Shown here: positions 31,326 through 35,703 of the stretch, piece after piece
Layout: each line of letters opens with the position of its first letter
How positions within the stretch are numbered: position 1 is the stretch's first letter
Assembly: GCF_041248615.1 (NCBI RefSeq)
Contig: NZ_CP158426.1
Direction: 5' to 3' (one strand)
DNA length: 64,000 nucleotides
Source of the DNA: Escherichia coli
GTDB taxonomy: Bacteria > Pseudomonadota > Gammaproteobacteria > Enterobacterales > Enterobacteriaceae
The notes under the pieces: generated by a model
What the model saw: only the letters and a program-made list of their open reading frames with translations
Database searches by the model: none
What the model was told of the DNA's origin: nothing
Translations under genes and position numbers: made by a program

Positions 31326-34001
31326 TTACTTCAACATATTACGAATGACATAATGCAAAATGCCGTCGTTCTGGTAGTAGGTCAACTCCGTCGCGGTGTC
31401 GATACGACAACGGCAGGGTACGACATCCTGGCTACCATCCGCGCGCGTAAGCGTCACCGGAACCGTCGCGCCGGGTTGTAGACTTTGCAGATCGACAATA
31501 TCAATCTTCTCTTCCCCGATTAGCCCTAACGTTTTACGCGTCACGCCTTGCGGAAATTCCAGCGGCAGGATGCCCATGCCAATTAAATTCGAGCGGTGAA
31601 TTCGTTCAAACGATTCGGCAATCACCACACGAATTCCAAGCAGACGCGGACCTTTTGCCGCCCAGTCACGGCTGGAGCCTGATCCATACTCTTTCCCGGC
31701 AATCACCGCCAGCGGCGTTTGCTCCTGCTTATAGCGCATCGCAGCATCATAAATAGAGACTACGTCGCTGTCAGGTAAATGCCGCGTCATCCCCCCTTCA
31801 ACGCCAGGCACCATTTCATTACGGATGCGAATATTGGCGAAGGTGCCGCGCATCATCACTTCATGGTTACCACGCCGCGAACCGTAGGAGTTAAAGTCTT
31901 TTCGCTCAACACCCCGACCTTGTAGATATCGACCCGCCGGGCTGTCGGGCTTAATACTGCCCGCCGGAGAGATATGGTCAGTGGTGACTGAATCCCCCAG
32001 CATTGCGAGGATCCGCGCACCGTGAATATCTTCCACAGGTGCTGGTGTTGCCTGCATTTCATCAAAGAAAGGCGATAAGCGAATATAGGTTGAATCCTCC
32101 TGCCAACCGTAGGTATCGGATCGTGCGACGTTAATTTCCTTCCACTCTGCTGTGCCTTCAAAAACTTCTGCGTACTCTTTACGGAACATTTCTGTGGAGA
32201 CTTGTTCTACCGCACGGGCAATTTCTTGTGCCGAGGGCCAGATATCTTTCAGATATACCGGGTCGCCTTTACGATCGTGACCAATAGGCTCAGAAGCGAG
32301 GTTAATATTCATATTTCCCGCCAGCGCATAGGCAACCACCAGCGGCGGCGAGGCCAGCCAGTTAGTTTTAACCAGCGGATGGATACGGCCTTCAAAGTTA
32401 CGGTTGCCGGACAGCACCGCACCGACGGTTAAATCGCCTTTTTTGATTGCCGTTTCGATAGGATCGGGCAATGGACCAGAGTTACCAATACAGGTGGTAC
32501 AACCGTATCCCACAAGGTTAAATCCCAGTTCATCCAGATACGGTGTCAGTTTCGCTTTTGCCAGATAATCAGAAACGACTTTCGAGCCTGGTGCCAGCGA
32601 CGCTTTGACCCACGGTTGCCGCTTGAGGCCCAGAGTTACGGCTTTTTTCGCCAGCAAACCTGCGGCCATCAGCACACTTGGGTTAGAGGTGTTGGTGCAC
32701 GACGTTATCGCAGCAATGACCACCGCGCCATCAGGTAACTGATACTGATGTCCGTTCATAACATAATCGACCGGCTGGCGATCTTTATGCGTGGCATTTA
32801 CTTCCAGTTCGTTACTGGCGGCAAATGCTTTTGGTACATCGGGCAGTGCAACGCGATCCTGTGGGCGTTTTGGCCCTGCCAGGCTCGCTTCAACGTCATT
32901 CATATCCAGTTCTAACGTACTGGTAAAAATCGGTTCATCGCCCGGGTTACGCCACATGCCCTGCGCTTTGGCATATTTTTCGACCAACTCGACCTGATCT
33001 TCGCTGCGCCCGCTTAAACGCATGTAATCGAGGGTGACAGCATCGATTGGGAAGAAGCCACAGGTGGCACCATATTCTGGCGACATATTGGCAATGGTGG
33101 CGCGATCCGCCAGCGGTAGTGAATCCAGCCCATCACCATAAAATTCGACGAATTTCCCCACCACACCATGTTTGCGCAGCATTTGGGTAACGGTGAGAAC
33201 CAGGTCTGTGGCGGTAATACCTTCACGTAATTTTCCGGTGAGTTTAAAGCCCACTACGTCTGGGATAAGCATGGAAACCGGCTGACCTAACATTGCGGCT
33301 TCTGCTTCGATCCCCCCCACGCCCCACCCCAGCACGCCAAGGCCGTTGATCATGGTGGTGTGCGAGTCAGTACCAACGAGTGTATCCGGATAAGCAATCC
33401 ATTCACCGTCCTGCAATTCGCTCCACACTGCTTTGCCGAGATATTCGAGGTTAACCTGATGGCAAATGCCTGTGCCTGGCGGCACGACGCTAAAACGACT
33501 GAACGCCTGCTTTCCCCATTTCAGGAACACATAACGTTCGTGGTTGCGCTCCATTTCCAGGCGCACGTTTTCTTCAAATGCCTCATCATCACCAAAACGA
33601 TCGACGGTCACCGAGTGGTCAATGACCAGGTCGACCGGTGAGAGCGGGTTAACCTTTGCAGTATCGCCACCGAGGCGTTTAACCGCTTCGCGCATTGCCG
33701 CCAGATCAACAACGGCAGGTACGCCGGTAAAGTCCTGCATCAGCACCCTTGCCGGGCGGTAGGCAATTTCACGGTCAGCATGGGCATTTTTCAGCCATCC
33801 CGCCAGCGCGTGGATATCCTCTTCGGTAACCGAGTTACCATCCTGCCAGCGCAGCAGGTTTTCGAGCAAAACTTTGAGTGACTTGGGCAGACGGGTGATA
33901 TTGCCCAGTGATTTGGCAGCAAGCGGCAGGCTGTAGTAGTGGTAAGTTTTATCTTTGGCCTGCAACGTGTCCTTACTGGCTTCTCGTAGGGTTGACGACA
34001 T
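31326..34001 (-). CDS. acnA: aconitate hydratase A
   Basis: 891-aa ORF matching AcnA. Confidence 0.95.
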
Positions 34002-34164
34002 AGCTCCTCCTTAATGACAGGGTTGCGACGCCCTGATTCTCTTCAGGGTGAATATTAAAGATAACACAAACATCGCGTAACGATTTGATAACAACCCAAA
34101 TTGATAAAAGAGGAGAAACCTTGTGGCAAAGCAAATGAAAACCCCGCCGCAGCGGGGTCAGGTA

Positions 34165-34260
34165 TCAGTGAGTAATGATCCAGAGGAATTCGGCCCAGAA
34201 GAGCATCGACAGAGAAAACGCGCCCATCCAGGACCAATATTTCATATTTGTGTTGATCAT
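34165..34260 (-). CDS. 31-aa hydrophobic small ORF upstream of acnA (possibly the small protein annotated as ymiC in K-12)
   Basis: hand translation of the minus strand gives MINTNMKYWSWMGAFSLSMLFWAEFLWIITH with an AAGGTG-like RBS; below the ORF-track length cutoff. Confidence 0.4.
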   Translation of the reverse strand: MINTNMKYWSWMGAFSLSMLFWAEFLWIITH

Positions 34261-34373
34261 AGGCTACACCTTTAACGGTTATTACTTTGTGTTGAGATAA
34301 CTCAACCTGTTATTGCTGCGGTGTATTAAAAGCCCTTTAATTCATTAAAAATGGGTAATAAGAATGATGATAA

Positions 34374-34541
34374 TTATTGTTTCGGCTGATCATCTTCAGC
34401 AAACAGTTCTATAAAGGCTTGCTGCTGCGATGTTAGTTGCCAGTCGTCTGGAATAACGACGGAACATTCCCGTTTCGTTTCTGTGTCATTGTCACTATGC
34501 TGGCATAATGGTGACGACTCCAGTTGCTCCTGACCGACCAT
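34374..34541 (-). CDS. yciX: small protein YciX
   Basis: ORF matches YciX from MVGQEQLESSPLCQHSDNDTETKRE (55 aa). Confidence 0.65.
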   Translation of the reverse strand: MVGQEQLESSPLCQHSDNDTETKRECSVVIPDDWQLTSQQQAFIELFAEDDQPKQ

Positions 34542-34543
34542 AG

Positions 34544-34684
34544 TTATCCCCACACTTTCCAAATCAGCAGTGCGACAACCACCCAGAAAAGTGCAGAACC
34601 AAGAAAAACCGCCAGCCAGGCTTTACGTTTTAATTCAGGATCGCGGCGGGGTTCCTGATTTCCAGAAGGCATTGCTAACCTCAT
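34544..34684 (-). CDS. ymiA: small membrane protein YmiA
   Basis: hand translation of the minus strand gives MRLAMPSGNQEPRRDPELKRKAWLAVFLGSALFWVVVALLIWKVWG; sits directly upstream of and abutting yciX as in K-12; below the ORF-track cutoff. Confidence 0.55.
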   Translation of the reverse strand: MRLAMPSGNQEPRRDPELKRKAWLAVFLGSALFWVVVALLIWKVWG

Positions 34685-34917
34685 ATAATCGCCATCACTT
34701 ATCAGCAAGACGTTGAACGATTGGTGTAATTAATCATACGATGAGACAAATCCTAAAGAAACTTTAGTCAAAAATCCAGCGAATTTACGAATCGTCTCCA
34801 GTGAATAATTCAATCTTTTGACCTGAAATAGATATTTGAAAACTGGAATTTGCGAGGCGGGTAATTAGACACTACTTTACAGGTAATTTACCCTATAAAT
34901 ATGAGGGATAAAAATAT

Positions 34918-34926
34918 TGTGCACGG
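34918..34926. repeat. IS1 target-site duplication, left copy (TGTGCACGG)
   Basis: 9-bp direct repeat identical to 35695..35703, immediately flanking the IS1 ends. Confidence 0.85.
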
Positions 34927-34981
34927 GGTGATGCTGCCAACTTACTGATTTAGTGTATGATGGTGTTTTTGAGGTGCTCCA

Positions 34982-35257
34982 GTGGCTTCTGTTTCTATCA
35001 GCTGTCCCTCCTGTTCAGCTACTGACGGGGTGGTGCGTAACGGCAAAAGCACCGCCGGACATCAGCGCTATCTCTGCTCTCACTGCCGTAAAACATGGCA
35101 ACTGCAGTTCACTTACACCGCTTCTCAACCCGGTACGCACCAGAAAATCATTGATATGGCCATGAATGGCGTTGGATGCCGGGCAACCGCCCGCATTATG
35201 GGCGTTGGCCTCAACACGATTTTCCGCCATTTAAAAAACTCAGGCCGCAGTCGGTAA
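34982..35257 (+). CDS. insA: IS1 InsA (transposition inhibitor / N-terminal part of the transposase)
   Basis: 91-aa ORF with zinc-finger CPSC...CSHC; matches IS1 InsA. Confidence 0.9.
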
Positions 35258-35679
35258 CCTCGCGCATACAGCCGGGCAGTGACGTCATCGTCTGCGCGGA
35301 AATGGACGAACAGTGGGGATACGTCGGGGCTAAATCGCGCCAGCGCTGGCTGTTTTACGCGTATGACAGGCTCCGGAAGACGGTTGTTGCGCACGTATTC
35401 GGTGAACGCACTATGGCGACGCTGGGGCGTCTTATGAGCCTGCTGTCACCCTTTGACGTGGTGATATGGATGACGGATGGCTGGCCGCTGTATGAATCCC
35501 GCCTGAAGGGAAAGCTGCACGTAATCAGCAAGCGATATACGCAGCGAATTGAGCGGCATAACCTGAATCTGAGGCAGCACCTGGCACGGCTGGGACGGAA
35601 GTCGCTGTCGTTCTCAAAATCGGTGGAGCTGCATGACAAAGTCATCGGGCATTATCTGAACATAAAACACTATCAATAA
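35176..35679 (+). CDS. insB: IS1 InsB frame (expressed as the InsAB' transposase by -1 frameshift at the A6C motif near 35233)
   Basis: 167-aa ORF matching IS1 InsB; overlaps insA in the -1 frame; slippery sequence TTTAAAAAAC present. Confidence 0.85.
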
Positions 35680-35694
35680 GTTGGAGTCATTACC

Positions 35695-35703
35695 TGTGCA
35701 CGG
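35695..35703. repeat. IS1 target-site duplication, right copy (TGTGCACGG)
   Basis: identical to 34918..34926. Confidence 0.85.

Follow-up and report, generated by a model that had tools for sequence, protein, structure and literature searches.

A 31-codon open reading frame between yciX and acnA in Escherichia coli is the small-protein gene ymiC, whose messenger coincides with the Rfam family STnc180

Throughout this work, the window refers to the whole stretch of 64,000 nucleotides of E. coli DNA that was analysed. An ORF listing of the window contains an ATG-initiated ORF on the minus strand at positions 34165–34260 (31 codons followed by a TGA stop), the translation of which is MINTNMKYWSWMGAFSLSMLFWAEFLWIITH. 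The original prediction, made from the sequence alone, had proposed a small ORF with these same coordinates and this translation. It had also pointed to an RBS-like AAGGTG upstream, and the minus strand 5' of the start does read ...GTTAAAGGTGTAGCCTATG, with a Shine-Dalgarno-like AAGGTG at 34272–34267, a spacer of 6 nt (TAGCCT) and the ATG at 34260–34258. The ORF is flanked by yciX (34374–34541) and acnA (31326–34001), both on the minus strand, and the predicted order, with the ORF between the two genes, is found in RefSeq and in K-12. The length of the ORF alone is at chance level, as 48 ORFs of at least 20 amino acids overlap the surrounding 2.5 kb. The case for a gene at this locus thus rests on conservation.

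The suggestion that the ORF may be the ymiC gene of K-12 is borne out by curated records. RefSeq holds an entry 'ymiC: small membrane protein YmiC' at identical coordinates: in NZ_OW967178.1, a 100% identical record, the ymiC coding sequence WP_001590092.1 maps exactly onto 34165–34260. In K-12 MG1655, ymiC is b4741 (YP_009518771.1, positions 1335572–1335667) and is likewise flanked by yciX (b4523) and acnA (b1276). Against the NCBIfam equivalog NF041484 (cut-off 42) the protein reaches 63 bits, and against Pfam PF23694 'YmiC-like' (cut-off 27) it reaches 84.6 bits over its full length (1–31); the UniProt name YMIC_ECOLI is present in its protein cluster. The region 33950–34750 is found by megablast in 5,421 of 5,426 complete E. 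coli genomes, with at least 80% coverage in 5,396 of them.

The only nuance in this identification concerns one residue. The window's YmiC and K-12 YmiC are identical at 30 of 31 positions, the exception being residue 25, which is F in the window and L in K-12, where the C-terminus is ...WAELLWIITH (PMC6001520). This conservative substitution is an ordinary, common natural variant as judged from sequence data, as the F25 and L25 alleles each occur on at least 1000 contigs of the protein collection and position 25 varies across the family (F/I/L/M/V). We regard it as virtually certain that the 31-codon ORF is ymiC and that ymiC is a genuine protein-coding gene. It is an already known one, named since 2018, present in RefSeq, UniProt, Pfam and NCBIfam, and with characterised expression, regulation and localisation.

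The conservation of ymiC extends well beyond E. coli. An exhaustive search of representative proteins returned diverged YmiC homologs with 59–64% identity, which have MKYWSW..AF..S.L.W.EL.W in common. We also searched a one-genome-per-species collection with a degenerate codon pattern for the YmiC core, which required an ATG at Met6 and fixed 17 of the 26 codons. This pattern matched 21 stretches, in Escherichia spp., Citrobacter amalonaticus and C. sedlakii, Kosakonia, Trabulsiella, Yokenella, Lelliottia, Dryocola and two 'Enterobacter sp.'. Requiring an ATG at Met6 missed the loci of Salmonella, C. koseri, E. hormaechei and Franconibacter, which were reached via YmiA homologs. Among the loci found in this way, YmiC is annotated in E. 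hormaechei, E. fergusonii and Franconibacter, and uncalled in Salmonella enterica (MLTSNIKYWSWTGAFVLSLLFWAELIWIAV) and C. koseri (MQTVNLKYWSWIGAFSVSLLFWAQLIWIVSF). The ymiC frame is present in at least 10 genera (Escherichia, Salmonella, Citrobacter, Enterobacter, Kosakonia, Trabulsiella, Yokenella, Lelliottia, Dryocola and Franconibacter). Separately, a 454-bp low-coverage contig of a Terrisporobacter assembly carries the K-12 ymiC sequence and is evidently a contamination.

The way in which these sequences diverge is that of a coding region. The distance from MKYWSW to the stop is exactly 26 codons in 21 of the 21 unique loci from other species, and mean pairwise differences are 0.26 at the first codon position, 0.13 at the second and 0.48 at the third. 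Pooled pN/pS is 0.28 overall, 0.46 on the codons left free by the search pattern and 0.56 on the last nine codons. The two shifted frames over ymiC give pN/pS values of 1.07 and 1.41 and also contain stops. Chance or overlapping ORFs (such as those at 34055–34237 on the minus strand and 34123–34275 on the plus strand) were considered and rejected, the shifted frames having stops in other species and pN/pS values of at least 1.

Conservation also bears on the choice of start codon. Met6 is replaced by I, L or V in Salmonella, C. koseri, E. hormaechei and Franconibacter, and in other genera the upstream ATG is preceded, with the same spacing, by an element of the GGTG, GGGTG or GAGGT type. As Met6 varies and a Shine-Dalgarno-like element precedes the upstream ATG throughout, M1 is taken as the start of YmiC.

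The order ymiA-yciX-ymiC-acnA is kept at every pattern-found locus with enough flanking sequence, and loci of other species with this order number at least 20. Gene content is less uniform in two cases: in a C. freundii-group genome with ymiA and yciX, ymiC was not found, and the Salmonella locus keeps ymiA and ymiC and has no detectable yciX. As the three genes do not strictly co-occur, their uneven distribution among genomes argues against an obligate three-protein complex.

The prediction of a Trp-rich small membrane protein with a single transmembrane segment agrees with the RefSeq name, the two family matches, a single predicted helix and the presence of four tryptophans among the 31 residues. 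AlphaFold2 models YmiC as one helix spanning residues 2–30 (mean pLDDT 86.7). In a 25-sequence alignment, K7, Y8, W9, S10, W11, F15, S18 and W22 are invariant, M1, A14, L20, F21 and W27 come close to invariance, and only E and Q occur at position 24. Members of the family have about 30–33 residues, an invariant KYWSW...F..S...W core and one hydrophobic helix. Conservation takes the form of an invariant block at the interface, beyond which further invariant residues are scattered, and no single conserved helical face was detected in YmiC (conservation moment 0.105, permutation p = 0.39). We accordingly rejected a single defined binding face, conservation not being confined to one side. On the Kyte-Doolittle scale, YmiC is only moderately hydrophobic (1.48 in the best window of 19 residues), and its membrane insertion thus rests on published GFP data.

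These data, along with other published work on K-12, document both synthesis and location of the protein. The ORF was an unannotated positive in a tetracycline ribosome-profiling (TetRP) screen, and chromosomally SPA-tagged YmiC was detected by immunoblot by VanOrsdel et al. in 2018 (PMC6001520). The original prediction had named two observations that would count against it, namely the lack of a translation signal and a frame not conserved in related species; the first is contradicted by this tagging and profiling work in K-12 (PMC6001520), and the second by the persistence of the frame across genera. In a 2024–25 preprint, YmiC is one of 17 small proteins induced under Mg2+ limitation in K-12, and GFP-YmiC is seen at the cell periphery (PMC11429745). 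In reporter assays of that work, the region upstream of ymiA gave PhoQ-dependent activity and the one immediately upstream of ymiC gave negligible activity (PMC11429745), so that ymiA, yciX and ymiC are read as one operon. Our own scan for PhoP boxes (KGTTTA-N5-KGTTTA, up to 3 mismatches) returned 185 matches for 148 expected, which is not above chance and leaves the published site of the acnA promoter as the one site of note. Neither deletion nor overexpression of ymiC affected growth or morphology in low Mg2+, and overexpression of YmiA led to delayed growth and elongated cells while that of YmiC had no effect (PMC11429745).

Upstream of ymiC, the operon comprises yciX (34374–34541, minus strand), which encodes an acidic product of 55 amino acids with no Pfam or NCBIfam match, and ymiA (34544–34684, minus strand), which encodes a single-pass membrane protein of 46 amino acids (PF22868, 125.9 bits). 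In the promoter-proximal region of the operon lies TAGGATTTGTCTCA (34742–34755, minus strand), identical in sequence to the motif that RcsB binds where transcription of ymiA starts in Salmonella; the motif given for ymiA in the Salmonella RcsB ChIP-seq table is TGAGACAAATCCTA (PMC7913699). In E. coli, a LolCDE inhibitor lowers yciX expression 3- to 12-fold (PMC5105897), a decrease that may reflect repression by RcsB.

An IS1 copy at 34927–35694, with target duplications of 9 bp (CCTGCACA-type CCGTGCACA), interrupts the spacer between cysB and ymiA, at about 235 bp on the upstream side of the ymiA start codon. The published expression data all stem from K-12, a different strain from this one with its IS1. 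NZ_LT599825.1 is 100% identical to the window, and a query spanning such an IS1 is covered to at least 80% by 52 of the 5,426 genomes. As the TAGGATTTGTCTCA motif lies about 170 bp downstream of the IS1, the promoter-proximal region of ymiA is probably intact.

On the other side of ymiC, an intrinsic terminator was detected by a terminator scan at 34131–34159 on the minus strand, 5 nt after the ymiC stop. It consists of a hairpin GACCCCGC-TGCG-GCGGGGTT (34159–34140) followed by a T-rich tail, and its fold has an energy of -17.4 kcal/mol (z = -2.3). A hairpin and T-run follow ymiC in nearly all genera, with stems that differ in sequence through compensatory changes. The distance from stop to terminator is 3–14 nt in most loci and reaches 55, 137 and 144 nt in three Citrobacter genomes, in which the terminator has been displaced by insertions, some of them REP-like. 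In K-12, Adams et al. (2021, PMC7815308) located an RNA 3' end downstream of ymiC, at a distance of no more than 200 nt.

Two further elements precede the coding sequence. The first is a 5'-leader hairpin, GTTGAG-TTAT-CTCAAC (34291–34306, minus strand), located about 30–45 nt upstream of the ymiC ATG. This stem-loop folds in all 16 aligned genera or species, although its stem sequences differ, and the corresponding helix (helix 3) is 92.5% paired in the 16-genus alignment, with double changes at 5 of 5 pairs. The second element, just 5' of the hairpin, is a conserved block TACACCGCAGCAATA (TACACnnCAGCAATA) at 34311–34325 on the minus strand, in which alignment columns T9, A10, C11, A12, C13, C16, A17, A20 and A21 are invariant or nearly so in the same alignment, and which includes a conserved CAGCAATA at about 34317. 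The block is the only conserved part of the upstream alignment, mean identity across genera being 42% further upstream. A consensus scan of the minus strand upstream of the block found no sigma-70 consensus promoter. The block may mark the 5' end of the transcript, a site of processing or a site of binding.

Leader, coding sequence and terminator together correspond to a family that Rfam records as a non-coding RNA. The model RF02079 'Enterobacterial sRNA STnc180' matches the window at 34131–34333 on the minus strand with 198.8 bits (gathering score 50), over all of its 208 positions. All 15 tested loci that carry ymiC are matched as well, and the single locus lacking ymiC is not. The question is then whether the locus is a regulatory sRNA in which the ORF is incidental, as its filing in Rfam implies. 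The strength and full length of the match and the recovery of the family in all ymiC-bearing genera could be taken to point that way, as could the covarying 5' hairpin and the conserved 5' block. When pairs of the Rfam consensus structure are counted in the 16-genus alignment, it is the leader hairpin and the terminator that show double changes. The unsupported helices (1, 2 and 4–6) are 37–81% paired with almost no double changes: of these, the stems pairing with the Shine-Dalgarno region (helices 1 and 2) are 61% and 37% paired, and helices 4–6, which lie inside the ymiC coding sequence, show mostly invariant positions or one-sided changes.

The original description of STnc180 bears on the same question. 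It was placed in the acnA/cysB intergenic region of Salmonella LT2, and its cDNA reads were slightly more numerous in the Hfq co-immunoprecipitation than in the control (5 vs 1; PMC2515195 Table S3). On Northern blots, however, the discoverers detected a band of about 2000 nt and no small RNA, and wrote of a 'likely processed mRNA species' (PMC2515195). Codon-periodic conservation of the ORF with pN/pS below 1, and the documented protein product and ribosome occupancy (PMC6001520, PMC11429745), also speak against an incidental ORF. Moreover, two other candidates of that study, STnc250 (ypfM) and STnc570 (yneM, that is mgtS), were likewise predicted in Salmonella as sRNAs from orphan promoter and terminator pairs and are actually small-protein mRNAs (PMC2515195). 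The reassignment of these two is stated in the literature, unlike that of STnc180, for which we found no link to ymiC in the literature searched. A non-coding sRNA is thus highly improbable here, and STnc180 as the sole explanation of the locus is largely refuted. STnc180 is the leader, coding sequence and terminator of ymiC, in other words a segment of coding mRNA.

Overall, these data are best explained by ymiC being the last cistron of a PhoQP-induced operon and encoding an inner-membrane protein of one helix, which we consider very probable. In this explanation, ymiC is the last cistron of ymiA-yciX-ymiC and is translated from the ATG at 34260 by means of AAGGTG, and the transcript ends at the terminator 5 nt after the ymiC stop, upstream of the proximal promoter that belongs to acnA. 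In K-12, YmiC accumulates in the membrane and is induced in low Mg2+ by PhoQP acting on the region upstream of ymiA. The protein would cross the membrane once, probably with its N-terminus inside; in this topology the K7-Y8-W9-S10-W11 block would be interfacial and F15, S18 and W22 would be located within the bilayer.

A stray tblastn match prompted a comparison of the YmiC and YmiA profiles. With hhalign, YmiC 4–25 aligns on YmiA 16–37 over 22 ungapped residues (probability 80.6%, E 1.3e-5), and conserved residues coincide at K7/K19, W11/W23, F15/F27, S18/S30, F21/F33 and W22/W34, which defines a common motif K-x3-W-x3-F-x2-S-x2-F-W. The observed value of 25.4 was never reached when the columns of the YmiC alignment were shuffled 300 times (shuffled 10.4 +/- 2.7, maximum 21.2), and the coincidence of six residues that are at least 90% conserved at a single ungapped offset has a permutation p of 0.0005. 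The alignment suggests a shared origin (paralogy) or a shared interaction motif, on evidence that is statistical and falls short of proof for such very short transmembrane sequences. No mention of the motif was found in the papers searched. YmiA and YmiC are both small single-pass membrane proteins, encoded in the same operon and induced in the same PhoQP-dependent manner. Unlike YmiC, YmiA has an extra basic N-terminal tail of about 20 residues and a WxxWG C-terminus, and the two proteins belong to separate Pfam families.

One E. coli assembly carries a tandem duplication of 388 bp at this locus, which results in the arrangement ymiA-yciX-[YmiC1-11::YmiA24-46]-yciX-ymiC-acnA. The YmiC and YmiA parts meet at a CCTGG microhomology on the Trp codon that is aligned between the two, in the same register as the motif.

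The most plausible analogues of YmiC among membrane proteins with described partners are MgrB, which inhibits PhoQ, MgtS, which acts on MgtA/PitA, and PmrR, which acts on LpxT. Like YmiC, they are single-pass inner-membrane proteins of less than 50 amino acids, and all four are induced in low Mg2+ via PhoQP and belong to the same set of 17 proteins (PMC11429745). They have no sequence relationship to YmiC and each of them, unlike YmiC, comes with a known partner and phenotype. By analogy, there is about an even chance that YmiC acts through intramembrane packing, with its helix lying against YmiA or against a larger protein of the membrane; the invariant intramembrane residues and the motif common with YmiA lend indirect support to such partner binding. 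A more elaborate reading, which we put forward only tentatively, is that YmiC would be a truncated paralog of YmiA, the two binding a common membrane target or each other, and that the RNA elements of ymiC would in addition provide post-transcriptional control of its own and a coupling to acnA by read-through. Speculatively, YmiC, which is devoid of the basic cytoplasmic tail, might temper or compete with YmiA.

The proposed coupling to acnA leads to another possible role of ymiC, that of a cis-acting uORF. Translation up to the ymiC stop would hinder folding of the terminator and allow PhoQP-driven read-through into acnA, either in addition to the function of the peptide or as the main one, and this would be compatible with a functional protein. 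The gene arrangement is suited to such a role: acnA is co-directional and lies 163 nt downstream of ymiC, and in most genera the terminator hairpin begins so near the stop that a terminating ribosome could reach it. A distal acnA promoter, P1, was reportedly placed by Cunningham et al. in 1997 about 400 bp upstream of acnA, a location that would put ymiC in the acnA leader; the papers searched gave no confirmation of it, and it carries no weight in this assessment. The pair ymiC-acnA is one of nine candidate uORF-dependent regulators selected on the basis of a 3' end no more than 200 nt downstream (Adams et al., PMC7815308), and the band of about 2000 nt seen with the Salmonella STnc180 probe, instead of a short RNA, also fits a longer transcript (PMC2515195). 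In Salmonella, binding of PhoP to the promoter region of acnA has been reported, as has a requirement for PhoP when acnA is induced under antibiotic stress (PMC10294627).

The same region nonetheless provides acnA with an alternative. Downstream of the terminator, acnA possesses its own proximal promoter region, which contains at 34056–34072 an exact copy of the PhoP site published for the acnA promoter, TGTTTGTGTTATCTTTA (PMC10294627). The spacing between stop and terminator is not fixed either, given the three Citrobacter genomes, and an alternative antiterminator pairing (helices 4–6) is unsupported by covariation. Finally, the peptide is itself under purifying selection, has the pattern of a membrane helix and accumulates as a stable protein (PMC6001520). 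No direct data on terminator read-through into acnA were found in the literature searched. Taken together, we consider it unlikely that ymiC acts also or mainly as a uORF.

A small hydrophobic peptide with a single helix, encoded on a short structured transcript, also calls to mind type I toxins, and a Shigella transcriptomics preprint groups ymiC with toxin-antitoxin components, for which evidence is not given (10.1101/2025.06.29.662172). Yet overexpression of YmiC has a negligible effect on growth, unlike that of DinQ in the same study (PMC11429745), ymiC is a single-copy gene whose synteny, in the operon it shares with ymiA and yciX, is fixed, and an Rfam search of the opposite strand revealed no known antisense RNA family. 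A type I toxin is thus contradicted by published overexpression data, and we regard this reading as barely tenable.

Several modest leads on YmiC emerge from its sequence and surroundings, namely the YmiA-like motif, the invariant intramembrane residues and the covarying leader hairpin. Natural experiments are also at hand, in the form of Salmonella without yciX and of the C. freundii group without ymiC. That RF02079 is the ymiC mRNA is a point for Rfam curation, of the same kind as STnc250/ypfM and STnc570/mgtS. More generally, this locus is a case in which a real gene of less than 60 amino acids was recognisable from raw sequence alone.

The Rfam family RF02079, entered as 'STnc180 sRNA' and first proposed as a Salmonella sRNA candidate, corresponds to the leader, coding sequence and terminator of ymiC (34131-34333, minus strand), the 31-codon small membrane protein gene (34165-34260, minus strand) which ends the ymiA-yciX-ymiC operon. 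No link between STnc180 and ymiC was found in the literature searched, and the discoverers of STnc180 saw only a band of about 2000 nt. RF02079 is likely a mis-typed Rfam family, and STnc180 resembles in this respect STnc250/ypfM and STnc570/mgtS, two sRNA candidates that turned out to be small-protein mRNAs. In the ymiC leader (34291-34325, minus strand), the 15-nt block TACACCGCAGCAATA is almost without variation, and after it comes a hairpin whose stem sequence varies among genera while pairing is maintained (92.5% paired, with double changes in all five of the five pairs). A conserved promoter upstream of this block was looked for and not found.

Clear YmiC homologs exist in Salmonella enterica (locus L027, 2848-2940) and C. 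koseri (locus L030, 2935-3030), both overlooked by the gene callers of those assemblies; at the Salmonella locus, yciX is not detectable between ymiA and ymiC. A Citrobacter freundii-group genome (locus L029, 2815-3122) carries ymiA and yciX, and neither ymiC nor an STnc180 match is present there. As only the acnA-proximal ~110 bp of its spacer can be aligned to E. coli, sequence comparison indicates a lineage-specific loss of ymiC in this genome. Finally, a 454-bp Terrisporobacter mayombei contig (coverage 1.3) carries a K-12-type ymiC with E. coli flanks, and almost certainly stems from E. coli DNA that contaminated this Firmicute assembly.

The ymiC gene of Escherichia sp. MOD1-EC7003 (locus L018, 13484-13641) starts with GTG, encodes KR instead of EL at residues 24-25, and has a terminator broken close to the contig end. 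In three Citrobacter loci (L009, L012 and L016), insertions, some of which are REP-like palindromic elements, place 55-144 nt between the ymiC stop codon and the terminator. The existence of P0001, a 63-aa YmiC variant from the search of representative proteins which has lost its stop codon and gained 32 residues translated through the terminator region, shows that rare disrupted or extended ymiC alleles are present in public data.

YmiC also resembles YmiA, the other small membrane protein compared here (ymiA, 34544-34684). The YmiA alignment and the 25-sequence YmiC alignment have in common, ungapped and in register, the helix motif K-x3-W-x3-F-x2-S-x2-F-W, whose residues are the invariant ones in both families. 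The hhalign probability is 80.6%, the alignment score is reached by none of 300 column shuffles, and the motif coincidence has a permutation p of 0.0005. This shared motif and these statistics suggest that the two proteins, encoded by one operon, are distant paralogs. In a single E. coli assembly, GCA_014330495.1 (locus L033, 2089-2984), a perfect 388-bp tandem duplication yields the gene order ymiA-yciX-[YmiC1-11::YmiA24-46 chimera]-yciX-ymiC-acnA. The chimera junction is a 5-nt microhomology, CCTGG, at a Trp codon which aligns between ymiC and ymiA; the duplication could be an artefact of assembly or the product of genuine unequal crossing-over.

In a transcriptomics preprint on Shigella (bioRxiv 10.1101/2025.06.29.662172), ymiC is counted with the 'type I and II TA module components'. 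Support for this classification was looked for and none was found, and published overexpression data (PMC11429745) speak against YmiC toxicity.

In the cysB-ymiA intergenic region, a 768-bp IS1 (34927-35694, insA/insB on the plus strand) is flanked by the 9-bp direct repeat CCGTGCACA (34918-34926 and 35695-35703), and the ymiA ATG lies ~235 bp downstream of the insertion. NZ_OW967178.1 lacks the IS1 and is otherwise identical, NZ_LT599825.1 carries it, and 52 complete E. coli genomes out of 5,426 match at least 80% of a query spanning it. The -35-like hexamer TTGGCA of the IS1 end, oriented toward ymiA, and its partner AATATT in the flank (34940-34913, minus strand) form a possible hybrid promoter facing ymiA.

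Upstream of ymiA, TAGGATTTGTCTCA (34742-34755, minus strand) is identical to a Salmonella RcsB ChIP-seq motif located at the ymiA transcription start (PMC7913699). In E. coli, a LolCDE inhibitor lowers yciX expression 3- to 12-fold (PMC5105897). At the other end of the operon, after the ymiC terminator and before the start of acnA, TGTTTGTGTTATCTTTA (34056-34072, minus strand) reproduces verbatim the site at which PhoP is reported to bind the acnA promoter of Salmonella (PMC10294627), so that PhoP may influence acnA as well as the ymiA-ymiC operon.
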